A stretch of 64,000 nucleotides of DNA. Source: Methanomicrobia archaeon. GTDB taxonomy: Archaea > Halobacteriota > Syntropharchaeia > Alkanophagales > Methanospirareceae. Location: positions 14,989-78,988 of the forward strand of contig JAFGHB010000022.1 in assembly GCA_016930255.1 (NCBI GenBank), in the 5' to 3' direction. The notes beneath the pieces were generated by a model. That model did not search any database and was not told the origin of the DNA. It was given only the letters and a program-made list of their open reading frames with translations. Shown one piece after another: positions 2,174-36,202 of this stretch; within the stretch, counting starts at the first letter, position 1; each line of letters opens with the position of its first letter. The translations under genes and the position numbers were made by a program.

Positions 2174-2656
2174 GTCTTGCTTTCATCCTAAGTGCTTCTT
2201 CCAAAAATAAGGCTTATACGTGTAGTATACGAGCACCTTAATTAAGAAACATTTATTTAGCTCCCGATCTATCTCCAAGGTGCAGTTCGAGCTCTCGCGC
2301 ATTCCGTGAATTTTTGCGTTCTCGCTAAAAGTACTTACACGACCAAGCCTTCCGCTTTTCAAAAAGCGATGTGTTTGCTTCGATATCTGTGCAATTGAGA
2401 AGGGACAAGATAAACGGATCCTGTTTTAAGAAGAGATTGGTGAGGGGTAAGGTCTGAGATATTTTTGAGGATTTTGATTATCATTCAGTGGACTAGTACT
2501 TTTTAGGTTAACCATAAGTGCTTCGATATCTGCCATGCTTCCGCTCCCCGTTTAACCTTCGTAGTCCTGTTAGCTATAAGATTAGCTAACAAAAATAGAA
2601 AAGCTTATATGTAGCATTTTACCTAACAGTACCTTTGGGAGGTATACCGCCGGAAG

Positions 2657-4027
2657 ATGAAAAAAGGCGTGAAGGTTTTGGGTGTGATTAATGATATTTA
2701 TCAGAAAGCGCCGATATTGGCAATTTGTGTGCTTTTTTTAGTAGCTATGGGCACAGTTTGCTTTGTATCTGCGTCTAATACGGCGTATAGCGTGCCAATT
2801 GGGGCAGAAGCAGAGGATTTGGCGGATAATAATTTGGTGCTCGCTTTTACCGGGGAGTTGGCTAATGGCGCTTTCAGCTCTCTCGAGGGATGGTCAGAAG
2901 ATATACGCGTAACCACGGATTCGTCAGATTCTTCTTACCCAGCAATTGCGGTGGATAGCACCAACAATGTCCATATAACCTGGTATGATTACAGGGACGG
3001 AAATGAGGAGATTTATTACACCAAGTTAGACAACAGTGGAACGACGCTGGTTGATGACACCCGCATAACCACGGATTCTGCAATTTCTGGGGGGCTCAGC
3101 AATTGCGGTGGATAGCACCAACAATGTTCATATAACCTGGGAAGATTACCGGGACGGAAACGCGGAAATTTATTACACCAAGTTAGACAGCAATGGAACG
3201 ACGCTGGTTGATGACACCCGCTTAACCACGGATTCTGCAGATTCTTCTTACCCAGCAATTGCGGTTGATAACACCAACTGTATCCACATAACTTGGGAAG
3301 ATTTGCGGGACGGAAATGAGGAGATTTATTACAAAAATAATTGTGGCGGTGCGCCACCAGAAAATCAACCACCAATCGTGGATTTTACGTACTCTCCGCT
3401 CCAACCGATTCTCGCTGAGACTGTAACCTTCAACGCCACCGCTTCGTACGACCCAGATGGTAATATCACAGGAGCTTTGGCGATGGAAACAGTACCAACA
3501 CAACAGAATCAACGATTACACATTCTTACGTTTCAATAGGTGAGTATACCGTGAACTTAACCGTAACCGATGACAAAGATGCAACGAATAAAACGTCCAG
3601 AGTGATTAAAGTTTTTCCGGACGTGCCCTACTTAGATACTGAACCAGGCACCTATCCAAGTATCTGCGGCCTCCATAACGGAACGATTGAGATGACACAT
3701 ACAGTTAACGTCAGTACAATCTATCTCTATCCGTGTACAGGCACTGGCGGGCATATCGAATACGCAAAGATATGGAACGCATCGTGGGAGGGGGCAGAGG
3801 CACACTGGCATGGGTACGTGGACAATTGGCACAATTGTTCGTTCGATACAAACTTTACGCTTGTGGCAGGTGCGATATACAACTACACGATCCGCACGGG
3901 CTCGTATCCGCAAATCCATCATCAACCCGAATTGTTGACTGCAAAAGGGTGGATCACGTGCTCGGAGTTCGTGGACATCAACGGTAAGAGGCACGAGGGC
4001 TGGATACCGGCGATTAGATTAGAATAA
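2657..4027 (+). pseudogene. membrane-anchored cell-surface protein with three tandem ~47-aa repeats and a PKD domain. It is interrupted by two single-base frameshifts, which may be homopolymer sequencing errors.
   Basis: Three consecutive ORFs (2657-3115, 3108-3539, 3551-4027) read as one protein once the frame changes at ~3090 (G6 run) and ~3470 are allowed for. The N-terminus has a TM helix (ILAICVLFLVAMGTVCFV). The repeat is SYPAIAVDSTNNVHITWxDYRDGNxEIYYTKLDxxGTTLVDDTRxTTDSA. The frame-corrected PKD domain is DPDGNITGSFGDGNSTNTTESTITHSYVSIGEYTVNLTVTDDKDATNKTSRVIKVF. Confidence 0.5.
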
Positions 4028-4148
4028 AAGTTCTTTCAGACAAGTCACTTTGAAGCACTTTGAGGCAAGAAGTAGAGTGACACCTATAAATAAAAGGAAT
4101 ACAGAAATAATAAAATAGCTATGAATCGCCGTCTGCAGGTGCTGAAAA

Positions 4149-4385
4149 ATGAAGAAATTTAACCTGACAGCTACGATATGGGAAGAAGAAGGCGTATATG
4201 TTTCAAAATGTCCTGAGTTGGGTGTTGCGAGTTGCGGCGATACACCGGAAGAAGCACTCAGTAATTTGAAAGAAGCAGTGGAGCTCTACCTCGATAATGC
4301 GAGAGAGTTGGGGCTTATTGTAGAGTTGGAAACCGCTCTTACGTCCTCACATAAATTCACTTCTACCTTTGAGGTAACTGCATGA
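4149..4385 (+). CDS. hicB: HicB-like antitoxin (UPF0150 family)
   Basis: 78 aa, TATIWEEEGVYVSKCPELGVASCGDTPEEALSNLKEAVELYLDN, matching the UPF0150/HicB fold signature. It overlaps the downstream hicA by 4 nt (ATGA). Confidence 0.7.
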   Translation: MKKFNLTATIWEEEGVYVSKCPELGVASCGDTPEEALSNLKEAVELYLDNARELGLIVELETALTSSHKFTSTFEVTA

Positions 4386-4623
4386 AGAAGCTGCCCGTGG
4401 TTTCTTCAGATGACGTAATCAAAGCATTGAAAAAAGAGGGTTTTGAATATGCTCCAAAGCGTGGTAAGGGAAGCCACACGGCACTTTTCAAAATTGATGA
4501 AAAAGGGCGTAAATTACTTGTTATTGTGCCAAAAAGAGAGAACTGCCCAAAGGCACTCTTTTATCCATTCTTCAACAAGCTAATTTATCGAAAGATGATT
4601 TCATTGAACTCTTGAAGACATAA
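4382..4623 (+). CDS. hicA: HicA mRNA-interferase toxin. It has a frameshift in an A-run near 4528-4533; the corrected C-terminus is ELPKGTLLSILQQANLSKDDFIELLKT.
   Basis: The N-terminus DVIKALKKEGFEYAPKRGKGSHTALFK...GRKLLVIVPKR is canonical HicA. The track ORF ends at 4615 in a shifted frame. The +1 frame continues with the canonical HicA tail and stops at 4621-4623. Confidence 0.65.
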
Positions 4624-4867
4624 TCAAAACAAAGACAGAGAACAACAGACTGCCAAGGATGCCCCTAATTTATTCCTGAATGGTGCGGTTAGGGCGGTCT
4701 TTAATTAGAAGTAACACTTTCAAAAACTTTGAGCCATCATTTGTGGCTGGGAAGGTTTGTAAGTCAAACCCATTAGAAAAAGGTTTAATCCAAAACGCTG
4801 CGCTGCTTCCTTTGGTAAAGCTTTTCTTTTTTAAGAAAAGGTTTGTTGATAAGGAGGGCCGTGCCTC

Positions 4868-6382
4868 TTATTCGAACAGCAGCCGGGCGAGCATGCTGCT
4901 CTTCTTCTCGTCTCTTTCATCGGCCTCCTCTGAATCATCCGAATCCCACTCGACCGTCTTCGATACCGCTGCTTTTCTCGCTGCTCCTCCCCCTCTTGTC
5001 TCCGCAGCTCTACCGCCGTGCTCGCTCTTTCGCACACGGACATCGACCATAATGGGCATCTCGATGCTCGGACTCGAAAGTAACGCGACGCCCTGCGGTA
5101 TCCGCTTGATCTCCTCTTCCATCTCGCTGCTCATAAACTCCAGACCTCTGCTCAACGCCTTGATATCGTTCGGATTCGTCACCTTCAGGATGATCTGCGT
5201 ATTGCACTGCGAGATGACGTTCTTATCCACCCGCGCGGGTCGTTGCGAGATGACGAGCAGCCCCAGCCCGAACTTCCGGCCCTCCGACGCGATGGTTCTC
5301 AAAATATTTGAGCTGACCGCCTGCCCGAATCCCCGTTCCGGACAGAAGTTGTGCGCCTCCTCGATAACGAGCACAAACGGCGGAATCTTGCCCATCTTCC
5401 TGCCTTCAAAAACCTCTTTGCAGAGTCGGTAAACGATTAACTGCTGTAATTTCGGCTCGGCACCTTTCATATCGAGTATAGACGCCTTACCCTCTTTAAC
5501 GAGCTCTTCTATTCGTGTCGGGCTGTCGGAGAGTATGCCGGTATCCCGGATCCGTTCGAGGAAGTGGATGATCTTCCATTTGGTGGTGCTCTTGCTCTCG
5601 ACCACCTCCTTGATGATATCGTCGATCGTGTAAAACTCCTTTCGCGCTTTGATTTCGTTTATACATTGGTATAAAACGCCTAATTGCGCGTCAGACAACG
5701 TGAAGAAGTCATATAATTCGTTTACGCTCAGATTGATCCCATCGATGCGAAATAGCCTGTCCGCAGCTGGATTTATCGAGAAATTCGCCGGTGTGTACAC
5801 CACAACTTGAGGGGCATACCCTTTCGGCGCGATCGCGAATTTATCCATCTGCCTCCGCTCTTCTTCGCTCTGGTTCTCGTATTTCAGTGAGAGATACTCG
5901 CCGTGCGGGTCAACGATAAGCAACGGGACGTTCTTGTCGAGCAGCTCCTCGATGAGCACGCCAGCCGTGTACGACTTGCCACTGCCCGTCTTCGCCAGGA
6001 TGCTGCAGTGTTTCTGGATTAGCTCGTCTTTCTTCAGATAGACCGGAATGTCACGCCCGTCAAGCATACCCAGGTGGATGCCCTTGTTTTTGAGCCCCAG
6101 CGTGTCCATGACGAAACTCTGATCTGCTTTGAAGATCTTGGCATCACGCGGGAGCGTACTTTTTGGCTGCATCAGAAAGCCGCGTTCGTCTTTATACCCG
6201 ATGATCTCCACGGTTGCCGTCTTCTCTTCGACGTCAACCATAGATACGACACGCCCGAGGATCCAGCCGTCTAATTCATTCCATACCTTTACGTACTCGT
6301 TCCTCCTTACCTCGCTGGAGACGGTAAAATCGAACTCGTGCAGTCCAACATCACCCGAAATCGTGCCTACTAACTTATACAT
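4868..6382 (-). CDS. herA: HerA-like hexameric ATPase/helicase (DUF87, FtsK/HerA superfamily)
   Basis: 504 aa with an N-terminal HAS-barrel-like region, Walker A (ILAKTGSGKSYTAG), LLIVDPHGEY and a Walker B region (VLVIEEAHNF), plus an acidic C-terminal tail. Confidence 0.7.
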   Translation of the reverse strand: MYKLVGTISGDVGLHEFDFTVSSEVRRNEYVKVWNELDGWILGRVVSMVDVEEKTATVEIIGYKDERGFLMQPKSTLPRDAKIFKADQSFVMDTLGLKNKGIHLGMLDGRDIPVYLKKDELIQKHCSILAKTGSGKSYTAGVLIEELLDKNVPLLIVDPHGEYLSLKYENQSEEERRQMDKFAIAPKGYAPQVVVYTPANFSINPAADRLFRIDGINLSVNELYDFFTLSDAQLGVLYQCINEIKARKEFYTIDDIIKEVVESKSTTKWKIIHFLERIRDTGILSDSPTRIEELVKEGKASILDMKGAEPKLQQLIVYRLCKEVFEGRKMGKIPPFVLVIEEAHNFCPERGFGQAVSSNILRTIASEGRKFGLGLLVISQRPARVDKNVISQCNTQIILKVTNPNDIKALSRGLEFMSSEMEEEIKRIPQGVALLSSPSIEMPIMVDVRVRKSEHGGRAAETRGGGAARKAAVSKTVEWDSDDSEEADERDEKKSSMLARLLFE

Positions 6383-9757: not shown

Positions 9758-9839
9758 GTGCTGTTCGGACACTAAGAAGCTAAGATAAGACGAGTAGCTT
9801 TTTCTTTGGTGTGCTTAATAAGATAGACGTAAAGTAATC

Positions 9840-10769
9840 ATGAACACCGCGATTTATCTCATCAGAGCAGTGAGCCTCATTACTTTCGGCGTGATCGTGG
9901 CGAACGTCGTGCTCGAGAGCGATGCGATGCGGAAGTTATCGCCGCTTATACGACCGTTCTGTAGTGCTTCGAACCTGCCGCGTGAAGGTACTATCTCGCT
10001 TTTCGCTGCCTTTTTCAATCCCACCGCTGGGAAATCGACCCTGGCGGGGTTCTATCACGAGGGTAAACTAACCGATAACGAAACGATCGTAACGCTCGTC
10101 ATGAGCACATTTCCGACCGTCGTTGGCGAATCGCTGTTCAGGGTGCATGCGCCGATTGCGCTCGTGCTGTTAGGCCCCGTTATCGGCAGCATTTATATCG
10201 CGCTCACGCTGCTCTCCGCGTTTCTACAGTCATTCGGCGCGTTCGTCTATGCGAAATTGCGCTTCCCGCAGCCGGCGTGTGTTGACGAGGAGATATATGC
10301 AGCTGCAACGGAAACAACAAAGAATCAGAAACTGAAAACGGCACTGAAGAAATCAGTTGCCACGTTGAAAAAGGTAGTACCAATAATGGTCGTGGCGTTT
10401 TTAGTGGTCGATATTCTGTTTACGCTCGGTCTCATGGACAATATTAGTGTCATCTTTGATCCGATCCTGCGCGTATTGGATCTGCCAGGGGAAGTAATCA
10501 CCGCACTCGTTGCGGATTTAGCGCATTTCTCCGCAGGTTACGCGATTGTCGCCGCACTGCTCGCGAAAGGCGTGATCACGGCGAAGCAAGCGATATTAAC
10601 ACTGCTCATTGGCAGCATGCTCATGATAACGCTCGTCTACCTGAAGTACAGCCTTCCCATGTATATGTCGCTCTTCGGCAAGCTCGGGGCGAAGATCACC
10701 GCGATTATGTACCTGAACAGTATGGTTGCGAAGGTGCTGATGATTCTGCTCGTTGTGGTAGTGATGTGA
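9840..10769 (+). CDS. polytopic integral membrane protein, function unknown (possibly the nucleoside-recognition/Gate-domain type)
   Basis: 309 aa with multiple hydrophobic helices and normal GC. I do not recognise the family with any confidence. Confidence 0.45.
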   Translation: MNTAIYLIRAVSLITFGVIVANVVLESDAMRKLSPLIRPFCSASNLPREGTISLFAAFFNPTAGKSTLAGFYHEGKLTDNETIVTLVMSTFPTVVGESLFRVHAPIALVLLGPVIGSIYIALTLLSAFLQSFGAFVYAKLRFPQPACVDEEIYAAATETTKNQKLKTALKKSVATLKKVVPIMVVAFLVVDILFTLGLMDNISVIFDPILRVLDLPGEVITALVADLAHFSAGYAIVAALLAKGVITAKQAILTLLIGSMLMITLVYLKYSLPMYMSLFGKLGAKITAIMYLNSMVAKVLMILLVVVVM

Positions 10770-11937: not shown

Positions 11938-12855
11938 CTACCACACCCGCGCCGCCCGTTGCGCCAGCTCGTTCGCATCTTGCGCCTCGCGCAGCATGCT
12001 TTCATCCAGAAACAAATAAGCAGCTCGCTTGTTGTAGTACGGCGCGCCCTTTCTCGAAAACACCGTCAAAACCTTGCCGTCGTGGTTCACTGCAACACCT
12101 TCACATTGGTAGTGACTTCGTATGACCGTCTTCACTCCCGCCATACTGAGAAATGCGTCCGTCGTCGTCTTCCCAAAGAGCATCCCGGCACCGCGTACTG
12201 ACTCGAAACAGCCGTTGCCCTCGATCGGGTCGTTCCAGAGCAGCTCCTTGAACGTGCTCGTTCCCGGATGTCTCTCGCGTGCGCGCGCAATCTCATCGAG
12301 CGAGGTTATCACGCAAGGCACGCCGCCGTGCATCATCATATACCGTCCCGTAACCAGTACCGCGTAGGGTAAATACGACCACAGCTCTTTGAGGGCCCTG
12401 TAGAGATCCTTGCCCTGCTCACCAAAGCGCTTGACAAAGAACAAAGGCAGTTCATGGGGTCTGAACATCATATCCGGCGGGCCTTCGTGGTTGCCGCGCA
12501 GCAGTACCACGCGTTCACCTTTGCCTGCGAACAACTTCAACCTCAAGACCACATAGTACATCGCAACGCTTTCATCGCCCCGATCGCCGTAATCGCCCAA
12601 AAAGATAATTCGATCCGCGTTTAAAACCTCCTGCTGCTTCAGTATATGCATCAGGCTATCCAGATCGCCGTGGAGATCGCCGATAACGACCATACTTGTC
12701 ACCGTGTGAGGGTCGATGCGCACCAATCCGCCCCCCTTGCGAGCACCCAACTCTTCACGCAATCGATCCTTCGCTTCCGTAATCAGTGCCGCAAACTCCT
12801 CCGCAGACGCCTTGAACGCCTGCTTCACCCATTCATCAACTTCCTCTGCCTTCAT
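11938..12855 (-). CDS. serine/threonine protein phosphatase, PPP-family metallophosphoesterase
   Basis: GDLHGD, GDYGDRG, GNHE and HGG motifs typical of PPP (PP1/PP2A-like) phosphatases. Confidence 0.8.
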   Translation of the reverse strand: MKAEEVDEWVKQAFKASAEEFAALITEAKDRLREELGARKGGGLVRIDPHTVTSMVVIGDLHGDLDSLMHILKQQEVLNADRIIFLGDYGDRGDESVAMYYVVLRLKLFAGKGERVVLLRGNHEGPPDMMFRPHELPLFFVKRFGEQGKDLYRALKELWSYLPYAVLVTGRYMMMHGGVPCVITSLDEIARARERHPGTSTFKELLWNDPIEGNGCFESVRGAGMLFGKTTTDAFLSMAGVKTVIRSHYQCEGVAVNHDGKVLTVFSRKGAPYYNKRAAYLFLDESMLREAQDANELAQRAARVW

Positions 12856-12945
12856 TTCATAGTCGTTACGTATGTATACCGGAATGTGGATTTTTCTGCC
12901 CGAACAATAAATAATATTCGCGTGAGTCGTAAAGGTGTTTGTGGT

Positions 12946-15893: not shown

Positions 15894-16313
15894 CTATCCC
15901 CGTCGCCTTCCACGGTATTTTACGAAAACTACCACCAACGATAGAAACACACATCCTGCCAGAATCCATAATAATATCGTTGTATTCGTAAAAATATCGT
16001 AAAAAGTATCACATAGTGATGGTTCGGGGCTTTCAGCCACGATAATCTCCCAACCATCGATCATCTCGTGGTGTAACCGCTCGTTCTCTGGTGTACGCTC
16101 GTAAACCCAGAGGGTAACTCTATATATTGACCTGTCTATGTCAGACGCAGCGATTTTCATCTCAGGGTCCTCTTTCCAGTTCTCTATTTGATCCCTGATC
16201 CAGGCTGCTTCTTCATCAGTTGCCGGTTCCGGAGCTAAGGTGGGTGCTGAACCGAGAGCGATACCTGTTGCTAGCACTGCTAAGATGATACCAATCGCAC
16301 ATAGCTCTTTCAT
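15894..16313 (-). CDS. small secreted/membrane-anchored protein. It carries the same C-terminal domain as the 16685-17629 gene product.
   Basis: Signal peptide, then MKIAASDIDRSIYRVTLWVYERTPENERLHHEMIDGWEIIVAE, then a C-terminal TM helix plus RGRRRG. The domain is shared with the 16685-17629 gene. Confidence 0.5.
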   Translation of the reverse strand: MKELCAIGIILAVLATGIALGSAPTLAPEPATDEEAAWIRDQIENWKEDPEMKIAASDIDRSIYRVTLWVYERTPENERLHHEMIDGWEIIVAESPEPSLCDTFYDIFTNTTILLWILAGCVFLSLVVVFVKYRGRRRG

Positions 16314-16684: not shown

Positions 16685-17629
16685 CTATTGCATCATATTT
16701 GTCTCAGCGGTGATCTCTGGTGACTTTTGGTCTTCTGCCACAATTATTTCCCATCCATCGATCATCTTTCTATGCAGTTGTTGGTTCTCCGATGTACGCT
16801 CATAAACCCACAGAGTAACTCTTTTTATCCCTCGGTCTATGTCCCATGCAGCAATTTGCATTTTGGGATTCTCTTTTAGGTCTTTTATCTTGGATTTCAT
16901 CAAAGCTACGTCATCATCGGTCACTTGAGCCAAACTTATCTTACTACTTGATACGTTACAATTTTCATCTATATACCAGGAATAAGAGGTAGTCGCATCT
17001 ATGTTGTCGCAACCGACATCGTTAGTGCTCTGAACTAAAACATACGTATCGTCCGTATCAGTGCCACAGGGCATCTGCCAATCCCCAGGCTCGATATCGT
17101 CCTCTCTATACTGAAAGAACCGCCAGTTATCAAAGTCACTCGTGCTGCCTCCCTCGTGCTCTGCGCAGACCGCATGATAAAATTCGAGATCGTTATTCCC
17201 TATGTAAGTATAATACACCGGGTCATCCTGACTTCCGTCATCCCAATCGGGATAGCAGTGCTCTGGATAAATGGCACTCCATTGCCAATAGCACTGCTCT
17301 ATTTCATCCTCAAAAGCCGGCGCGTATTGACTCTCTCCTGACCACCGTATAATCGCATTGTGCCTACACACTGCATCATTCCAGCTTTCCGATCCTCCCT
17401 GGCAATCGGATTGTCCACCTCGATAGTCCTCTATTACACCGGTCACGTATCCCCTAGATTCAATATCTAGATTTTCATCGATTACCTTACCGCCACATCC
17501 ACATCCTTCACATTCTGCTTCGGCTGTTTGGGAATCTCCTAGATAGAGTTGTGTAGATCCTAGAGCTACACCTGTTGCTATCACTACTAAAACACCAATC
17601 GTCCAAATCTTAGTCATCATTTTTTCCAC
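16685..17629 (-). CDS. Cys-rich acidic secreted protein with a C-terminal DIDR...LWVYERT...MIDGWEIIVAE domain
   Basis: Signal peptide (KIWTIGVLVVIATGVALGS), many Cys (CEGCGCGG...), and a C-terminal domain paralogous to the 15894-16313 product. It lies immediately downstream of conserved leader element copy A. Confidence 0.5.
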   Translation of the reverse strand: MEKMMTKIWTIGVLVVIATGVALGSTQLYLGDSQTAEAECEGCGCGGKVIDENLDIESRGYVTGVIEDYRGGQSDCQGGSESWNDAVCRHNAIIRWSGESQYAPAFEDEIEQCYWQWSAIYPEHCYPDWDDGSQDDPVYYTYIGNNDLEFYHAVCAEHEGGSTSDFDNWRFFQYREDDIEPGDWQMPCGTDTDDTYVLVQSTNDVGCDNIDATTSYSWYIDENCNVSSSKISLAQVTDDDVALMKSKIKDLKENPKMQIAAWDIDRGIKRVTLWVYERTSENQQLHRKMIDGWEIIVAEDQKSPEITAETNMMQ

Positions 17630-17640
17630 ATCACCCCCTA

Positions 17641-18045
17641 ACTTTTTTGGGTACTTATAAAGCGCCCCTCCTCGGCGCTTCGCCTTCCTTCTGCGGCTTT
17701 TCGCCCGTCAGGGATTCGCACCCTGTACGGGCCTCTCCTGCTTTTTTCTACACCTCATCTTCGCGCTCCTGAGCGCGAAATGTTGTGAGTTGTTTCAGCT
17801 TTAACTTAGTTAATAACCTATAGCACATTTATTATTAACCGTTGCCAATATTGCCGAAGGAAATCAATATTAGCTAACGCTGTCAGTGATCTGCACACCA
17901 AATAAGTTTCCTATAATCAGCCACGAGACTATCTCTGAGGAATCGGCCGATTCACAGAGGATCTTGGTGATCCCCATAGATTTCACCTTTAGAAGGAGGG
18001 AGGATAATTAACAAGCTTTCTTTCCTTTCCGCTTCCATAAAATTA
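17641..18045 (-). repeat. conserved leader element, copy A: promoter, structured 5' UTR and RBS shared by four operons
   Basis: Near-identical over ~200 nt to the copies at 20150, 22281 and 23645, and a further ~200 nt are shared with the 23645 copy. It contains the hairpin GCCCGTCAGGGATTCGCACCCTGTACGGGC (17703-17732), the palindrome TCGCGCTCCTGAGCGCGA, and GCGCC-CCTCCTC-GGCGC. The last reads, in mRNA sense, as an SD-like GAGGAGG in a hairpin loop. Confidence 0.7.
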
Positions 18046-18172
18046 TCCACCTTTGCTGCTCAAGCGCCCCTCCTCGACGCTCACTAATCACATCGTTCAA
18101 CCCCTGATAAAACCATCTTTTCGTTCACATTCGCCGAACGAAAAGCGAAGGTTTAAATAAAAATTGTATTTT

Positions 18173-19006
18173 CTACTCTTCACTGGCTGGTGAAGGAGTC
18201 AAAAGCGATTTCTCCCATTGATGCCCAACGTTGATAACTTCCCCCTGTTCAATGTCAACGAAAACCATTAATGTGACATTTCCTATTTTTATCGGAACTA
18301 CCGGGACTTCACCTGAAAAGTTCTCTTCGGGACCCGCTATCTCAATATGTGCTTTGCTTACATCCCCTATTTCGTATTCCTTGTTACGTATTTCTGCCCT
18401 AACCCGTTCATCCTTTAATGCAATTGCTATTGCATATCCCCTATCTTCTTCGCTTAAGTCGTGCTGCGGAGGCATCTCACCGTGCGTCAGATCTATTTCC
18501 GTAGCTAGCCCCCCGAAACGCTCCCATCGCCATTCTCCGTAATAAGGGTGCGGGGTAGCAAAATATCTTTTCCAATGAGCTTCTACTTGCACATCGTAGC
18601 TTTTACCGGCTTTTAAATCGAACGTATACTCAAAATGATAGGGTTGTCGATACTGTAACGTTATGTTTTCTGAGGAAGTTACCTCACGATCTCTACTATT
18701 AGGCACTCCAGCAAGCACGAGAATTCTCACGGGTAGGTCATCAGGCAGTGGTTCATCTTTGCTTGAACTTGAATACAGTGAGGAATCTTTATAGCGATAG
18801 GTAACATCTCCGGATAACGCCACCCGGTCCGTCGTTTCGTTGATACGAGTAACGTCCGTCCAGTTTAAATGCTCGATGTAGATATTACTATCTGGATTAC
18901 TGATTATGATGAGGTTCGTATGGAATAAAAGAAGATAGAGGACAATCAATACCGGAACGCCAACGGCAATGATTGCCTCAATGATATTCTTATTTCTTGT
19001 TCTCAT
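18173..19006 (-). CDS. hypothetical membrane-anchored protein; second gene of the peptidase operon
   Basis: 277 aa with one N-terminal TM helix. It overlaps the upstream peptidase gene by 17 nt. Confidence 0.45.
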   Translation of the reverse strand: MRTRNKNIIEAIIAVGVPVLIVLYLLLFHTNLIIISNPDSNIYIEHLNWTDVTRINETTDRVALSGDVTYRYKDSSLYSSSSKDEPLPDDLPVRILVLAGVPNSRDREVTSSENITLQYRQPYHFEYTFDLKAGKSYDVQVEAHWKRYFATPHPYYGEWRWERFGGLATEIDLTHGEMPPQHDLSEEDRGYAIAIALKDERVRAEIRNKEYEIGDVSKAHIEIAGPEENFSGEVPVVPIKIGNVTLMVFVDIEQGEVINVGHQWEKSLLTPSPASEE

Positions 19007-20138
19007 TTTTACTCTTCTGTTCCTTAACAGACGTAAACGTATCCGTTAGACCACTCGTCATCTCCGCATATATTCTCGTATACATTCTCTTCGAAGTTAA
19101 AAGATGCCTGCCTTGCCAATCGTACCATGACATCAAGTTTGTGCCCGTCCAGGTATTTGGGTCCCACAACGCGAAATTTTGCTGAGTGTCGTGATACCCA
19201 CGTACAACAACGGCATGACAGTTCCCCCACTGGCTCTCCTCGGTTATATAAAGTGGCCATTCGGTGTTTATTCTCTGCATTACGTGATTTATAGTACTCA
19301 GTAGTGAGCCCTGGTAATCGCCTTTATAGCAAGGAACATCGACTTCGTCGAAGTAAAGTTCTGCTTCTGTGGGAGACATCGGAGCATAACCATTCCATAC
19401 CCAAATGTCCCAGATATCTGGAGAATTGCTATTCCAATACTCTTCAAGCATTGCCGCACAGGTCTCACCACACGCTCTGCTGGCAGCATCGTAACCATGT
19501 CCATCGTAATACAACTCCCACTGACTACGCTGTGGTACATCAAGATATTTAGATCCTCTTGCGTCCATTGGTTGATCTGGATCATGAACGACCTCATCAA
19601 TCAGACCGTCTGAAGTACCGCGAAAAGCTACCTCATACTTCGTCTCATCAATAACTACTGATCCATGCAAGCCCCCGATACTATCTTCGAAGAATTCACC
19701 TTTGAGGGAAATCTGATTGCTCTTGTCGCTTAATTCGACGGCACACGCATACATTCTTGTAGCACCTTCATATCTTGTCATCGTTTTACCATGGAGATCC
19801 CTGTAAATCGGCTTAGCATCTTTGGGGACATTCCATCCCACGAAAATTTTCTCTGCTTTCCCTTCAAGATCCACGGCGTATGGCGTATCATCAATGGTAA
19901 TTGTACCTGCGAGCAAAAGGCAATTCTTCCCATCAATGGTACCGGATAGATACGCCTGAGCTGTTCTGTCCCCAGAAGGCTCGATTACTAGACCTCCTGG
20001 CTTATCTAAGCATAAAGTAATCTGCTTGCTTGTAGTAGCAGTTGATGCCGCATATTCTTTGGTCTGATCCTGAGCTATGGCCAGCCCGACACTGCATATC
20101 AGTATCCCTATTACGCCTATTACCCATATCTTCTTCAT
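18990..20138 (-). CDS. secreted papain-like cysteine peptidase, C39-like (Peptidase_C39_2-type)
   Basis: Signal peptide. The catalytic-Cys motif CGETCAAMLEEYW and the downstream His motif GNCHAVVVRGY resemble C39-like peptidase domains. Confidence 0.55.
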   Translation of the reverse strand: MKKIWVIGVIGILICSVGLAIAQDQTKEYAASTATTSKQITLCLDKPGGLVIEPSGDRTAQAYLSGTIDGKNCLLLAGTITIDDTPYAVDLEGKAEKIFVGWNVPKDAKPIYRDLHGKTMTRYEGATRMYACAVELSDKSNQISLKGEFFEDSIGGLHGSVVIDETKYEVAFRGTSDGLIDEVVHDPDQPMDARGSKYLDVPQRSQWELYYDGHGYDAASRACGETCAAMLEEYWNSNSPDIWDIWVWNGYAPMSPTEAELYFDEVDVPCYKGDYQGSLLSTINHVMQRINTEWPLYITEESQWGNCHAVVVRGYHDTQQNFALWDPNTWTGTNLMSWYDWQGRHLLTSKRMYTRIYAEMTSGLTDTFTSVKEQKSKNENKK

Positions 20139-20149
20139 CTTCTTCTAGC

Positions 20150-20460
20150 ACTTCCTAATTTTTGGTATTTCGCAAGCGCCCCTCCTCGGTGCCGCGCTTT
20201 CCTTCTTCGCCTTTTCGCCCGTCAGGGATTCGCACCCTGTACGGGCCTCTCCTGCTTTTTTCTACACCTCGTCTTCGCGCTCAGGAGCGCGAAATGCTGT
20301 GGCTTGTTTCAGCTTTAGATGATGAAATAATCTATAGCATATTTATTATTAACTGTGTTCGATATTACCGATAGAACTCAATATTAGCGAGTGCTTGCGG
20401 TGACCTGTACGTCAAACGAGTTCCTTATAATCTAGTGCATATTCTTTCAAACCTTTTTGA
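20150..20460 (-). repeat. conserved leader element, copy B
   Basis: Same GC-rich core as copies A and D, including the GCCCGTCAGGGATTCGCACCCTGTACGGGC hairpin and the TCGCGCTCAGGAGCGCGA palindrome (its centre is inverted relative to copy A). It sits directly 5' of the peptidase gene. Confidence 0.7.
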
Positions 20461-20528
20461 CGCTTTTTGAATGACGTCCGGTGAAAAAACGTTCGCCAAT
20501 CGAGTGATAGGAAAAATAAAAGGGGGAG

Positions 20529-21503
20529 TTAGTAAACCACCCCCAACGATTCCAGCTCTTCAGCTTGCACCGCGAGCACATAGTCGTGAAACGGCTCTTC
20601 CCTCCCTTCTGAATCAATGACCGTTCCAGTGAATGCGTATACCGGCAGAACAAAATCTTGTTTCGTTATTCGCGGTTCCATCCAATATCCAATGGATATC
20701 TCGTTGATAGTTGCTCGATCTGCCATCATCTCCAACGGTGGTTGTACACGGTTCTCGCCGGCAATTAGCTCTTTATATGCTTCTTCCGGTGTCTTTAGTG
20801 AAATTTCTCTGTAGGGCTCTATCGCTCTCCAATTCATTACTATTTCATGGACTTCACTATTATTACCTATGATCACTGCTAATTCATCGTGGCCATATAC
20901 TGGTAGGCCGTTGACGCTTCGAGAAAACCGCACGGCTAAGGACACATCGTAGGATATGATGGGTTCACTTGAACCCGCTCTCCAAATCTCGTATGTTTCA
21001 GAAACGCCCACATTTTTGAACTCTGCGTCTTCGGGCAATAGTTTTCTGGTCGAAAGATAGTCAGAAGCGATCTCCTTTGCATCGTTTTCGGATGGTAGGA
21101 TGGGCTGAGAGTCGACAGAAGCGGGATACTCCTTATAATACTGGATAGCTCCCGAAGCCTTATAAACGGTTACTTGCTTTCTTGTCCCTTCCGCCTCATC
21201 TACTAGACGAATCTTATCGTTTATACGAAGCTCTGCATTTTCAGTCAACCCAAATGTTCTACCAATGCCCTTTACGTAGTCGCTTGTAACCTCTGGAGTT
21301 ACCGTTTTATATACAAGATATGAATCACGTATCTCCGGAAAGGTGGCATTCAGCACGAATGTTGTTTCAGCACCTTCCTCGGACGGAGGGAATAGACCGG
21401 GAACCGCGTTAGTTCCTGTGTGCTCAACCCAAACCGTTGCAGCCGCAAATAGCACTGCTACCGTGACGACTATCCCTAAGATTACCCATAGTTTTTGTGT
21501 CAT
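20529..21503 (-). CDS. hypothetical membrane-anchored extracytoplasmic protein
   Basis: 324 aa, N-terminal TM, second gene after the 21519-22274 lipoprotein-like gene. Confidence 0.45.
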   Translation of the reverse strand: MTQKLWVILGIVVTVAVLFAAATVWVEHTGTNAVPGLFPPSEEGAETTFVLNATFPEIRDSYLVYKTVTPEVTSDYVKGIGRTFGLTENAELRINDKIRLVDEAEGTRKQVTVYKASGAIQYYKEYPASVDSQPILPSENDAKEIASDYLSTRKLLPEDAEFKNVGVSETYEIWRAGSSEPIISYDVSLAVRFSRSVNGLPVYGHDELAVIIGNNSEVHEIVMNWRAIEPYREISLKTPEEAYKELIAGENRVQPPLEMMADRATINEISIGYWMEPRITKQDFVLPVYAFTGTVIDSEGREEPFHDYVLAVQAEELESLGVVY

Positions 21504-21518
21504 TTTTTTTCTTCAATC

Positions 21519-22274
21519 CTAACTGCAACTATATGTCCACGTAGTATACCCTGAATTTACGGTTGGATCGGCGATAACAGAACCTTCACCCCAGATGTGG
21601 TCGTTCCCGCATGCTGAATTTTCGCCGATTATCCGTACCGTGTAATCTGAGCCATGTGTCTCGTCGATAGCGTGATACCACGCGTCTTTAACCGTCTCTC
21701 CGTCTAATAGATTATCTGCAAAATTACCGCCATCAACACAGTTCAGTGAAGAGGTTGTAAATCCACAGATCAAATGCACCCCATTGAGACCATAGTGGCT
21801 ACCCTTAAACCTATCTGGCTTTTCTGTTGAGTGACAGCCATGTAAGGCAATCCACTCCAAATCGTGATCTCCCCATTCGATCTCGTTGAAAAAACTCACC
21901 CACTTCGTATAGGTTGAAAGCTCCAGTCTGTTATTTTGCGCATGCCCCTGGTACCAGGCAATGTCGACACCATCGATGTACGTGGAATCTTGCCCATCGT
22001 GTTGAAAGTGCTCTTCTTTCGTGTTAGTATTACCTTTATCAAATTTTCGAGTCCAGCCAGCACTGCCCAATCCATTATAAAATGCTTTAGCGGAATCATC
22101 ACTATTTGGGAGATCACTGTGGGGCCAGCTATAATCTGTCACCCATTCAATGCCCACCTCAGGGGAGGTAGCATCGTTATCATCACCAGTCCCCGCAGTA
22201 GCACATGACATGAGAACCACCGAACTTACTGCTAGTATCAACGAAAGCTTCAAGCACACTGCTCTTCTTTTCAT
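21519..22274 (-). CDS. hypothetical secreted lipoprotein-like protein with conserved His/Cys motifs
   Basis: Signal peptide ending LMSCATAG; motifs IALHGCHS and GVHLICGF; no family recognised. Confidence 0.45.
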   Translation of the reverse strand: MKRRAVCLKLSLILAVSSVVLMSCATAGTGDDNDATSPEVGIEWVTDYSWPHSDLPNSDDSAKAFYNGLGSAGWTRKFDKGNTNTKEEHFQHDGQDSTYIDGVDIAWYQGHAQNNRLELSTYTKWVSFFNEIEWGDHDLEWIALHGCHSTEKPDRFKGSHYGLNGVHLICGFTTSSLNCVDGGNFADNLLDGETVKDAWYHAIDETHGSDYTVRIIGENSACGNDHIWGEGSVIADPTVNSGYTTWTYSCS

Positions 22275-22280
22275 TTATAA

Positions 22281-22355
22281 CACCTCCTAATTTTTTGGGT
22301 ATTTATAAAGCGCCCCTCCTCGGCGCCTCGCCTTCCTTCTGCGGCTTTTCGCCCC
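22281..22355 (-). repeat. conserved leader element, copy C (truncated to ~75 nt)
   Basis: CACCTCCTAATTTTTTGGGTATTTATAAAGCGCCCCTCCTCGGCGCCTCGCCTTCCTTCTGCGGCTTTTCGCCCC matches the gene-proximal part of copies A and D and then diverges. Confidence 0.65.
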
Positions 22356-22386
22356 TTCTTTGATATTTGATATTCTAAAGTTTGGC

Positions 22387-22785
22387 CTACACAACTAGCA
22401 TTATCCACAAAATAGCACCTATAATGACAAGAAAAAATCCGAGTTTTTTGTTACTATTTATTAGTATAGCTCCAGTTCCTATAATACTGAGACAAATACC
22501 CGAGTATATCCAAAATCTAAATACTACTCCAAATACAATAATATCGTACATGAAAAGGAGCATAAATGGGAGAAAGCTCACCGCTAGCACCGAAGGTATT
22601 TTACGAGACCACCCGCTATAAATTCCAACTATGAGTGGTAATGCAATTCGTCCGATTTGCGCGTAAAGCGGTCCATATTTTGGAGATATTTGCAATATTA
22701 CGGGGAAAAAAGGAAAGAGGAGGACTATAAAAAATACTAACAAAGTTAGTACCACGCTCCTCCATTTTATATGTTCATACTTCAT
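22387..22785 (-). CDS. hypothetical small polytopic membrane protein (AT-rich)
   Basis: 132 aa, four hydrophobic helices, AT-rich codon usage. Confidence 0.45.
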   Translation of the reverse strand: MKYEHIKWRSVVLTLLVFFIVLLFPFFPVILQISPKYGPLYAQIGRIALPLIVGIYSGWSRKIPSVLAVSFLPFMLLFMYDIIVFGVVFRFWIYSGICLSIIGTGAILINSNKKLGFFLVIIGAILWIMLVV

Positions 22786-22815
22786 GCGACTCTTCTCCTT
22801 CTATATTTTCATATT

Positions 22816-23637
22816 TCATGCGGTTAACTCGATAACTGGTGCTAACCCGTCGTTATCCCCCAAGTCATCATTGCCTAAGTCGGTATACCAAATATCTCCA
22901 ACGAACCCTTCATCTGCAAAGTCATCCTTTACAAAATCTTCTGCGTCTTCATAGCTGATATATTGGTGTCCCGTTCCCGTCCAACGCTCATAGTGTACGT
23001 TGGCATCACTCCAGTCATCCGCCCAGTGAGGATCTGAATATTCACTGCCGAAAATCCGTATGTGATACCTGTACCCAAAGTAATCACCGTTTTCAAGTTG
23101 ATAGTCTTGCACTTTCCAATAGGCTGTGCCACCATTCGCTGTGTCGTCGATGTACGTCCGCGCTGACCAACCTGTAGCACCATCCCATGTATTATCGATC
23201 CAATTCTGCATGTCATATTGAACATCCCAAGCGTTACCAGTATTATAAAATATCAGATTTATGGGATCATCTTCCACCCCGGGGGCGAGGACATCTTGAT
23301 AAGCCCAAAAATTTATGCATTTCTCGCCGACTTTGACTAGCTTCAACTTGACTTCAATATCATCTGGAGTCTCTTCTAGCTCCTCAGCCCAATCCTTAAT
23401 CGCTTGATTCACCAATTTTTCACCCTTTTCTCCCAAATTCTTTCGAAGGAAATTGAAATGCTCTTCGTTGGCTTCTAAGAATTCTTCCATACTTGGTTTC
23501 TTAATTGTTACGATCTCTTCCCTAATCTCTGAAGGGATCATCTTTTTGTTATTATCTGGAAGAACCGTAGCTGTTGTTGCAGCTATTGCAGTGATTAACA
23601 CCGCTACAACGATTGTCGAGATAAGCGTCTTTTTCAT
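22816..23637 (-). CDS. hypothetical acidic secreted protein
   Basis: 273 aa with a signal peptide (LISTIVVAVLITAIAATTA); rich in D/W/Y. It lies immediately downstream of leader copy D. Confidence 0.5.
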   Translation of the reverse strand: MKKTLISTIVVAVLITAIAATTATVLPDNNKKMIPSEIREEIVTIKKPSMEEFLEANEEHFNFLRKNLGEKGEKLVNQAIKDWAEELEETPDDIEVKLKLVKVGEKCINFWAYQDVLAPGVEDDPINLIFYNTGNAWDVQYDMQNWIDNTWDGATGWSARTYIDDTANGGTAYWKVQDYQLENGDYFGYRYHIRIFGSEYSDPHWADDWSDANVHYERWTGTGHQYISYEDAEDFVKDDFADEGFVGDIWYTDLGNDDLGDNDGLAPVIELTA

Positions 23638-30149: not shown

Positions 30150-31868
30150 GTGAATAGAATGGAGGATAATATACAATCTTCACGGGTGATATTCTTTTTA
30201 GGTGCTGGTGCATCCGTTGCTGCTGGGGTTCCCGATACGTATTCCTTTGTTGAAGAATTTAGAGAGAGTATAAGTGACGCTGCTAAAAAAGAATCAATTA
30301 ATCAAATAATCGAGACTCTAGAGGAGTGGAAAGGATCAGAGATTGACATTGAACTCTTATTAGAGACATTAACAAAACTTGAAAGGAAAGATGAAGAACC
30401 ACTAACATCGTTTTTTAAAGAAGATAAGTTCGCTTTAAGCGATTTAACTCTAATAGAACCATTGATAAAAGATTTGAAAGATTTTATTAAAAGCAAAGCT
30501 ATTGTATCAGAGGAGTCAATAAAATATTTGGAACCAATTCTTGGATTCTTGGAAGAACCTTTAGATATTATATCGGTGAATTATGACACCTGTATAGAGC
30601 AGTTCTGTAATGTTTACAGACGTGTCTATCAGGATGGTTTTGAACTTGAATGGAATCCAAAGACTTTTGCTAAGGAACACACAGATATTCGTCTTTATAA
30701 GTTACATGGATCAGTAATGTGGTATCAAAGCGACAAAGCAGGTTACGTCAAAGTACCTATTAGGACAATGGAAAGCGAAATAGAACTTATTACTCGTGAG
30801 AAAGCTATTAACCTCATGCTTTACCCAATGCAAAAGTGGGATTATGCCGAACCGCTTTTAGAACTGCTCGTGGAGATAAAACATCGTCTTGAGTCAGAAA
30901 CGTGCAAGTTTTTGGTTATCGTGGGGTATTCTTTCAGAGATGAACATATCAGAAGGCTACTTTGGGATGCAGCGAGGAAAAACAAAAAACTCACGTGTAT
31001 ATTGATAGATCCGAAGGCATATCAGATTTACTCTAATAAACTTAAATATTATGATGATGCGTCAAAAATTCCCTCATCATTGTATGAACGTGTTGTTTGT
31101 TTGCCGTATAAATTTGAGAAAGTATTCCCTTCCGTCAAAAATTATTACTTACTCAATCTGCAGAATGGTCTTGGTCGTTATGATTCTTTACGTCAACAAG
31201 AAACCATTGAGGGTAAAAAGATAGACTGGATTGCTTGCATCCCTGAGTTGGTAAATGCAGAACATTGTGAAATAGTAGAGCACTTACTTGATCGAATTAA
31301 TGTAACTAAATTTGAAAGAAATTTAGAATTGAACCTTAATTTGCTACTGAAAATGTTTGTTAATTACTCAGCCAGTAACCAAACAGAGAAGGCAGCTGAA
31401 TATTTCCAAAAATTCATTAGTTTTCTTCAAACAATCTTTGTGGAAAGATTAGATCTAGAGGTTTCGAGAGAGCCTAGATTCCCTTCTATTCTGTGGAATT
31501 GCATTCCCACCGATTCAGGTAGGAGTTATCATGATACGAACCAAATAAAGATATTCATTGAAAATTTGTTTGATTTTTGTAACGAGAGAGTAGAGTGGGT
31601 TCAAGAGTCAAGCGATGATTTTTGGAAGGTTAACGAAACGCTAAACTCACTAAATATATATCTGGAGGAGTTTGTAGATGAAACCAAGGATTTTGGAGCG
31701 TATATTACTCTGAGGACTAAAGAAATAGCGGATGTCGTAGGGGATGTCGAAGAATTTAGAAAAAAATACCAAGGAAAAGCGCTTGCGTCGAATGAAGAAC
31801 AAAATGAGCTGAGATCAAAGATTGTGAACATCGAGAAAAACATTTTAACAGGAATTTTAGGGGAGTAG
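30150..31868 (+). CDS. SIR2-like (SIR2_2/DSR-type) domain protein with an uncharacterised helical C-terminal domain; candidate NAD-consuming defence protein
   Basis: VIFFLGAGASVAAGVP (SIR2 GAGxS motif), IISVNYDTCIEQ (SIR2_2 NYD motif), IRLYKLHGSVMW (SIR2_2 KLHGS motif). It is 572 aa, and the gene plus flanks are distinctly AT-rich. Alternative start ATG at 30159. Confidence 0.65.
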   Translation: MNRMEDNIQSSRVIFFLGAGASVAAGVPDTYSFVEEFRESISDAAKKESINQIIETLEEWKGSEIDIELLLETLTKLERKDEEPLTSFFKEDKFALSDLTLIEPLIKDLKDFIKSKAIVSEESIKYLEPILGFLEEPLDIISVNYDTCIEQFCNVYRRVYQDGFELEWNPKTFAKEHTDIRLYKLHGSVMWYQSDKAGYVKVPIRTMESEIELITREKAINLMLYPMQKWDYAEPLLELLVEIKHRLESETCKFLVIVGYSFRDEHIRRLLWDAARKNKKLTCILIDPKAYQIYSNKLKYYDDASKIPSSLYERVVCLPYKFEKVFPSVKNYYLLNLQNGLGRYDSLRQQETIEGKKIDWIACIPELVNAEHCEIVEHLLDRINVTKFERNLELNLNLLLKMFVNYSASNQTEKAAEYFQKFISFLQTIFVERLDLEVSREPRFPSILWNCIPTDSGRSYHDTNQIKIFIENLFDFCNERVEWVQESSDDFWKVNETLNSLNIYLEEFVDETKDFGAYITLRTKEIADVVGDVEEFRKKYQGKALASNEEQNELRSKIVNIEKNILTGILGE

Positions 31869-35554: not shown

Positions 35555-36202
35555 ATGAAAATCGAGAGCATTCCCGCCCTGGGATCTTATATCTACGCAT
35601 TTATTGCGCGCAAGAGCCCGCCGTTACGGGACTTGTGTAAAGCGGTGGCGGCTGAGGTTACCGGAACGATCACCGCAGGACGGATATTGGATATCGGAAC
35701 CGGCCCGGGCTATCTGCTTATCGAGATCGCTGCACGCGCGCCCGGTTTAGAACTCGACGGTATTGACCTCTCGCCCGCAATGGTGAAAATAGCGCGTAAA
35801 AACGCAGCAAAGAAGGGCGTTGCGGACCACGTGCGGTTTCAACGCGCGAATGCCGCCGATCTGCCCTTTGACGATGGCTCTTTCGACTTAATCCTAAGCA
35901 CGCTCAGCTTCCATCACTGGTCACGACCGCTCGAGTGCCTCACGGAGATTCGTCGTGTCCTCAAAGCGCAGCACGAAGCCTAGATCTATGACGCGCGGCG
36001 CGATACCACGAACGAGGTCAATGCAGCATTCAGAAATGAATATGGCCGGTTCTTAGCGTTCCTCTTCCTGAGGCTCGTACGGGCGCACTCATCGGTCACC
36101 TTACGCGAGCTGGAAATGCTGCTCGCTGCTCCTGAACTGCGCTTCGCGCGAGCTACCATCATTGATCGTGGCGTCTTCCTTAAATTGCAACTCGTGAAGT
36201 AA
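35555..36202 (+). CDS. class I SAM-dependent methyltransferase with an in-frame TAG codon at 35981-35983
   Basis: ILDIGTGPGYLLIEIA (motif I), LPFDDGSFDLILS (motif II/III). The frame continues unbroken after the TAG (IYDARRDT...LQLVK) to TAA at 36200-36202, giving a normal ~215-aa methyltransferase. Confidence 0.55.

Follow-up and report, generated by a model that had tools for sequence, protein, structure and literature searches.

The split reading frame at positions 2657-4027 (+) of the window, by which the whole 64-kb (64,000-nt) stretch of DNA analysed is meant, is best explained by the recent inactivation of a gene that encoded a modular protein, secreted or exposed at the cell surface, in an uncultured archaeon of the class Methanomicrobia. 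The gene lies in a 1.55-kb segment that is missing from related strains. A probability of about 75% is assigned to this explanation. An undamaged copy would encode a signal or anchor helix followed by a seven-bladed beta-propeller of 52-aa blades, a PKD domain and a C-terminal PHR-like beta-sandwich, and the product would probably have been located at the cell surface. A sequence-only reading of the same DNA had described a surface-protein gene that combines tandem repeats with a PKD domain and is interrupted by two frameshifts. That description holds, as the array, both breaks, the PKD domain and a signal-like N-terminus are all present. The alternative of a true pseudogene, which it had also named, fits best in view of the blade deficit, the frameshift, a 10-nt deletion and the absence of the gene from relatives.

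Three defects have accumulated in this copy. Only 3 of the usual 7 blades are left, the frame is shifted in the loop of blade 2 (3089-3098), and a 10-nt deletion in the core of the PKD domain has removed the residues S-Y-N-W. Translation from the ATG would halt at 3115 after one blade. Because of this stop, and because the downstream pieces are without a secretion signal, no functional surface protein is expected, and loss of function is the probable outcome. Three independent defects together with the absence from relatives point to a young pseudogene, and the fact that all three pieces are still open in their own frames suggests that inactivation was recent; stop-free pieces are, however, equally expected of an intact gene with two assembly errors. 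The pseudogene itself is of little consequence, a frameshifted accessory surface-protein gene being ordinary. The locus illustrates the turnover of repeat-rich surface genes through blade loss, small indels and whole-gene loss or gain between strains, and its blade repeat and 136-aa C-terminal domain hold modest interest for work on the cell surfaces of ANME-type archaea.

Reading frames and the two frame breaks

The source record is a GenBank metagenome-assembled genome (MAG), 'Methanomicrobia archaeon', with a contig of 106,725 nt. Frame 0 opens with the ATG at 2657 (+) and continues until a stop at 3113-3115, frame +1 is free of stops from about 3096 to 3539, and frame 0 is open once more from about 3473 to the TAA at 4025-4027; between the two breaks frame 0 holds many stop codons. 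The first piece (2657-3115, +, frame 0, 152-aa ORF) is GenBank JW878_03485, 'hypothetical protein'. Its signal or anchor helix, at about aa 18-40, is followed by a linker and the closing strand GWSEDIRVTTDS, after which come blade 1 and the first part of blade 2. The second piece (3108-3539, +, frame +1, 143-aa ORF) completes blade 2 and goes on to blade 3, a linker and the N-terminal half of the PKD domain. The third piece (3551-4027, +, frame 0, 158-aa ORF) encodes the end of the PKD domain and the C-terminal domain. Its protein is identical to a metagenomic protein, P0121, and MBN1762132.1, 'PKD domain-containing protein' (170 aa), is the same ORF with an earlier start. At least two of the pieces are therefore annotated as separate proteins in GenBank, and a corrected annotation would join JW878_03485 and MBN1762132.1 in one pseudogene. 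The N-terminus, MKKG...APILAICVLFLVAMGTVCFVSA-SN, has a signal- or anchor-like hydrophobic stretch, and the gene is 60-70% identical at its N-terminus to three homologues (P0001, P0019, and P0038). As the genomic contexts of these three are not syntenic with the window, they are regarded as family members and not as orthologues. Searches of genome and metagenome contig collections with the frame-repaired protein returned no orthologue and paralog-level relatives only, and tblastn detected no paralogs inside the window. A putative ribosome-binding site, GGGAGGT (2637-2643, +), ahead of the ATG and a putative TATA-like element, TTATAT (2605-2610, +), can be read from the sequence.

Breaks near 3090 (frame 0 to +1) and near 3470 (back to frame 0) had been proposed in the sequence-only reading, and both are confirmed. 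At the first, frame 0 is sensible up to ...TDSAISGG and frame +1 is sensible from AIAVD, which places the shift within GGGGGGCTCA (3089-3098, +) in the loop of blade 2. Removal of one G gives DSAISGGSAIAVD, whose loop has the common length, that of 78 of 90 blades, and which has a serine where 79 of 90 blades have proline. Addition of CC (CTC-CCA) gives DSAISGGLPAIAVD, which keeps the proline and whose loop is as long as in 7 of 90 blades. The break is thus either one extra G or a loss of CC along with the conserved proline, and a slip in the G run is possible. The G6 run had been put at 3090-3095, and it actually occupies 3089-3094. The tie of the break to this homopolymer is not secure, since the break can be placed only within 3089-3098 and the lost CC fits it too. 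An exact look-up of the 152-aa ORF and a search with the N-terminal 93 aa returned no record besides the source MAG covering this break, which could be a sequencing or polishing error.

The second break is of another kind. It lies at 3468-3473 (+), where frame +1 gives way to frame 0 at a 10-nt deletion junction, ACA|GG-AGC, at 3470/3471, and the window reads GAT GGT AAT ATC ACA|GG AGC TTT GGC GAT GGA. The homologous PKD core is DPDG[SN]I[VT]SYNWSFGDG; missing here are Ser-Tyr-Asn and the first base of Trp. The same 10-nt gap appears in a DNA alignment with the gene of a homologue (P0042). Eight residues separate D.DG from FGDG in 23 of 24 homologous PKD domains, as against five in the window, and the tryptophan before FGDG, found in 22 of the 24, is absent, so the window protein does not have the core motif intact at its usual spacing. 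There is no homopolymer at the site, and the second break, once read as another homopolymer frameshift, is instead a 10-nt deletion relative to all homologues. The proposed one-base change does restore the frame here; it does not restore the lost S-Y-N-W. The net changes (+1-10 or -2-10) are multiples of three, which is why the tail is back in frame 0. The PKD domain (3363-3601, +) that is interrupted by this break is nevertheless well recognised, as had been claimed. In the frame-repaired protein PKD_4 (PF18911) matches over aa 236-315 with 52.1 bits against a cut-off of 27 (E=7e-14), and PKD (PF00801) with 37.7 bits against 23.5. In this the domain is like those of PKD surface proteins of methanogens and ANME archaea. 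Dozens of archaeal proteins have a design in which the N-terminal module varies (propeller, NosD beta-helix, SBBP) and in which PKD and the C-terminal domain found here come after it. The window protein differs from them in its 10-nt deletion and the loss of the conserved S-Y-N-W.

The protein of the third piece was found on a 2140-nt Logan contig (L031) from run SRR13394437, which is 100% identical to window positions 3098-5237. The second break and the right-hand end of the gene both fall inside this contig, in which a second assembler gives the same 10-nt deletion, although the run may be the same read set as that of the MAG, so that the independence is that of the assembler only. A literature search returned no paper on this run. 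The contig starts at 3098 because an exact 31-mer is common to repeat copies 1 and 2. An assembly error, which the sequence-only reading had kept in play, is unlikely at break 2 given the identical sequence over 3098-5237.

The blade repeat and the C-terminal domain

Tandem Repeats Finder reported an array at 2906-3333 with a period of 157, 2.7 copies and a score of 609. Read directly, the copies begin at 2906, 3062 and 3219 and have a unit of 156 nt (52 aa), which the second copy, with 157 nt, exceeds by one base. The three 141-nt (47-aa) units described before are therefore replaced by 2.7 copies of a 156-nt unit. Blade 1 (2906-3061, +) has 156 nt and 52 aa, blade 2 (3062-3218, +) has 157 nt and holds the first frame break, and blade 3 (3219-3333, +) is a terminal blade whose last residues, EIYYK, are those seen in homologues and lead into the linker NNCGGAPPENQPP. 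The blade array of one homologue, P0003, ends in the same manner with EIYYKSNCGGAPP. Copies 1 and 2 are 87% identical at the DNA level over 156 nt. Over the common 114 nt every pair falls at 81-87%, and 2940-3088 matches 3097-3245 at 92%. The strong tandem repeat claimed earlier thus stands, and the figure of about 90% identity is replaced by these values.

The repeat family had been left unnamed. It is a sialidase/BNR-like, 'PDIAV-motif' beta-propeller blade, each repeat unit being one four-stranded blade of a seven-bladed propeller as modelled on P0003. The AlphaFold2 model of this homologue has pLDDT >90 over residues 51-410 and shows seven four-stranded blades, one per repeat. Foldseek matched the model to CylK (7roo, E=3e-17) and to the lectin CV39L (6gxs, E=3e-12, target TM 0.72), with further matches to GH145 BT3686 (5mul) and sialidase-like proteins. 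The repeat would resemble BNR-kind propellers (BNR_4, BNR_2 PF13088; 6gxs, 5mul, 7roo) in its 52-aa four-strand blades and, in the predicted structure of P0003, in the closed ring of seven. The window protein is unlike them in having 3 blades and a sub-threshold BNR_4 match, and identity to the solved structures is 8-18%. For BNR_4 (PF15892) it scores 22.2 bits, under the cut-off of 27.3, and P0003 passes with 36.7 bits. TIGR04275 (beta_prop_Msarc) gives 33.1 bits (E=3.5e-8) for the window protein and 16-36 bits for homologues, under the curated 85. NF053835 (PDIAV motif-containing lipoprotein) has no match to the window protein at E<=1, and scores 74 bits (E=1.4e-20) with P0003 and 58 bits with P0019 against a cut-off of 90. 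The blade motif P-x-I-A-V-D ... W-x-D-x-R-D-G-N-x-E-I-Y-Y is common to TIGR04275 and NF053835. By these scores (33 vs 85 and 74 vs 90 bits) the blade repeat is related to these two families and not a member of them. SBBP and TolB-type models match the homologues below their cut-offs, and the 52-aa repeat is above threshold in no curated model tried.

Blades were counted with an HMM built from the blades of homologues and run on 104 proteins, including the frame-repaired window protein. Seven blades were found in 75 proteins, six in 18, five in 6, four in 3 and nine in one, and the window protein is the sole one with three, so that its blade matches do not make up a seven-bladed ring. The first (GWSEDIRVTTDS...) and last (...EIYYKNNCGGAPP) blades of the window array resemble the terminal blades of homologues, which indicates that internal blades are missing. 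They were likely lost through unequal recombination between the near-identical 156-nt units. Fewer than seven blades is by itself no proof of non-function, as some homologues have 4-6. Among the homologues, those with 4-5 blades (L010, 472-1848 and 1971-2942; L011) lie on short contigs, and their blade DNA is 86-100% identical; L010 holds two tandem paralogs, and another homologue (P0038) has two identical 52-aa blades. Blade number in the family may vary via recombination or may be under-counted as assemblers collapse repeats.

The C-terminal domain (3617-4024, +) consists of 136 aa, is all-beta with a PHR-like beta-sandwich and ends in WIPAIRLE before the stop. The earlier description of the gene had lacked this domain, as well as the seven repeats of homologues and the absence of the whole gene in relatives; the tandem repeats and PKD domain that it did contain are retained. 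No Pfam family matched the domain, and no sequence-profile match was obtained to the PHR domain (PF08005). The likeness to the PHR domain (BTBD2, MYCBP2; 3no8, 3gbw) and to phage baseplate and carbohydrate-binding-module-like sandwiches is a resemblance of fold only, with identities of 7-11%. A match of the window domain to a multicopper oxidase (3aw5, E=1e-4) was considered and rejected, because it came via an HWHG motif that is unconserved in homologues and because the family profile had no match among PDB sequences. The domain stands at the C-terminal end in about 110 of 126 homologues, typically ending in WIPAI[RK]L plus one residue, and the N-terminal modules before it are very diverse, including NosD beta-helices, SBBP and other propellers, and PKD domains. 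A beta-sandwich of 136 aa outside any Pfam family closes more than 100 modular archaeal proteins, and it may serve them as a common binding or anchoring module. In addition, DUF4082 is weakly matched by 8 of 120 members of the domain family, and on one contig (L009) three genes end in the same DNA motif (5347-5372, 9835-9863, and 12832-12860).

The strain-variable segment and its neighbourhood

The whole gene lies in a segment of 1553 nt (2473-4025, +) that also includes 185 nt upstream and extends to the T of the stop codon, so that the segment boundary coincides with the gene end. The segment is absent from four related JGI metagenome contigs (L032, L033, L034, and L036), which align to the window until 2472 and resume at 4021-4026. 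The empty-site junction, GAGGAT|AAAAGTTC, is identical in all four, and its sole homology is a 2-nt 'AT' microhomology. The context is ...TTTTTGAGGAT|AAAAGTTCTTT..., with one substitution just upstream in L033, and the flanks are 88-99% identical to the window. The right junction of the segment is spanned by the Logan contig. On either account, insertion here or deletion in the relatives, the population can do without the gene. The empty site was at first taken as ancestral in the present analysis from pairwise identities; this was withdrawn after site patterns were counted (27 unique to the window, 21 to L036, and 8 to L032, with a mosaic near the junction), as these counts do not show the ancestral state. 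No terminal inverted or direct repeats and no mobile-element ends were found at the segment, and its first 185 nt, ahead of the gene, do not resemble the sequence that precedes the genes of homologues. The single clean present/absent junction, seen across diverged strains, could be read as cassette-like transfer of whole surface-protein genes, with the PHR-like domain as a shared anchoring or sorting module and recombination handle, and this is a speculative and rather unlikely interpretation. If it were true, the gene here would be no long-standing resident but a cassette that arrived recently and is already damaged.

Several minor features lie around the segment. An exact 14-nt direct repeat, TGCTTCGATATCTG, occurs at 2376-2389 in the conserved flank and at 2519-2532 in the variable segment, 143 nt apart, which is beyond chance expectation in 1.9 kb. 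The upstream neighbour, on the other strand, is an aspartyl-tRNA synthetase gene, for whose protein an exact look-up returned no record, and the next two genes after the third piece are a HicB/HicA pair. This toxin-antitoxin pair lies directly 3' of the variable segment (4149-4615, +, and 4630-4863), and the exact HicB protein is present on seven contigs. HicA has 77 aa here and 80 or 65 aa in sister contigs (loci L032-L035), with another length difference in L034 relative to window 4630-4863, and the HicBA neighbourhood resembles a small hotspot of strain variation.

Competing explanations and other genes in the window

Since the source is a metagenome-assembled genome, the gene could in reality be intact and both breaks could be errors from the assembly or sequencing of near-identical repeats. 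The first break touches the G6 run and adjoins the 31-mer common to copies 1 and 2, and the three pieces are without internal stops, all of which would agree with such an artefact. The second break does not agree with it, being a 10-nt deletion in unique sequence, away from any homopolymer, that a different assembler has reproduced base for base. After frame repair the PKD domain still lacks four conserved residues, including the tryptophan present in 22 of 24 homologous domains, and a join via a shared k-mer would leave the frame unchanged. No breaks of this sort were seen elsewhere in the window. Its other ORFs of at least 100 aa look intact, apart from a methyltransferase gene with an in-frame TAG, the one further defect observed. 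Two frame breaks so close together, within 400 nt in a single gene, therefore exceed the background error rate. An artefact is thus improbable and could account for the first break at most. Phase variation, in which slippage of the G run would turn the surface protein on and off, had also been suggested. The product is of surface type, the G6 run lies at or beside the first break, and a switching role has been proposed for homopolymer tracts throughout the prokaryotes, some archaea included (PMC2831843). In these respects the locus is like bacterial contingency loci. It is unlike them in its second, irreversible lesion, its tract of only 6 G, its archaeal host and the absence of the gene in related strains, which have lost or never had the gene rather than differing in tract length. 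No single reversible repeat-length change restores the frame, as the 10-nt non-repeat deletion remains. Two independent lesions would have to revert, and the deletion cannot, so it blocks any product that a repaired G run might give. In addition, the first break is perhaps outside the G run, six other G/C runs of 6-7 nt (G6, C6, and C7) in the window lie in intact ORFs or outside long ORFs and break no ORF, and the propeller is incomplete in any case with only 3 of 7 blades. Phase-variable expression is on these grounds excluded for practical purposes.

A functional but unusual product would have to arise by programmed frameshifting, +1 and then -1, to give a three-blade protein that oligomerises to a closed propeller, or else by separate use of the ORFs. 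The shifts do cancel (+1/-10 or -2/-10) and bring the C-terminal domain back in the starting frame, and some homologues have 4-5 blades. Propellers formed by oligomers of two or three blades are also known in other lectins. This explanation is very unlikely all the same. Neither site shows a recognisable recoding signal, there being no X-XXY-YYZ slippery heptamer at ACA-GGA-GCT, and the stops in frame 0 between the breaks are many. The downstream ORFs have no signal peptide, and the breaks are common to no homologue. Frameshifting would, moreover, still yield a damaged PKD domain from which conserved residues are gone. Recent inactivation of the gene remains the preferred explanation.

Other genes of the window gave several observations in their own right. 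The gene with the in-frame TAG (35981-35983; ...RVLKAQHEA*IYDARRD...) encodes a class I SAM-methyltransferase (35555-36199, +), its frame is open to about 36199, and Pfam models align across the TAG (Methyltransf_23, aa 27-191). Either the gene has become a nonsense pseudogene, or readthrough or recoding takes place at the amber codon, pyrrolysine being one example of such recoding for an archaeon of the class Methanomicrobia. Two further genes have architectures typical of anti-virus defence genes. One encodes a 956-aa protein (52494-55364, +) with DUF4062, TPR repeats and a weak NB-ARC match (21.6 bits, under 23.5) in a STAND-type NTPase layout, and the other a 572-aa protein with a SIR2_2 domain (30150-31868, +). 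On the minus strand a run of signal-peptide proteins (16685-23637) includes a Peptidase_C39_2-like protein (18990-20138) and a DUF6345 protein (21519-22274), and this run may be a secreted-protein gene cluster. The genes at 15894-16313 and 16685-17629 have the C-terminal motif ...WVYERT.EN..LH..MIDGWEIIVAE in common.
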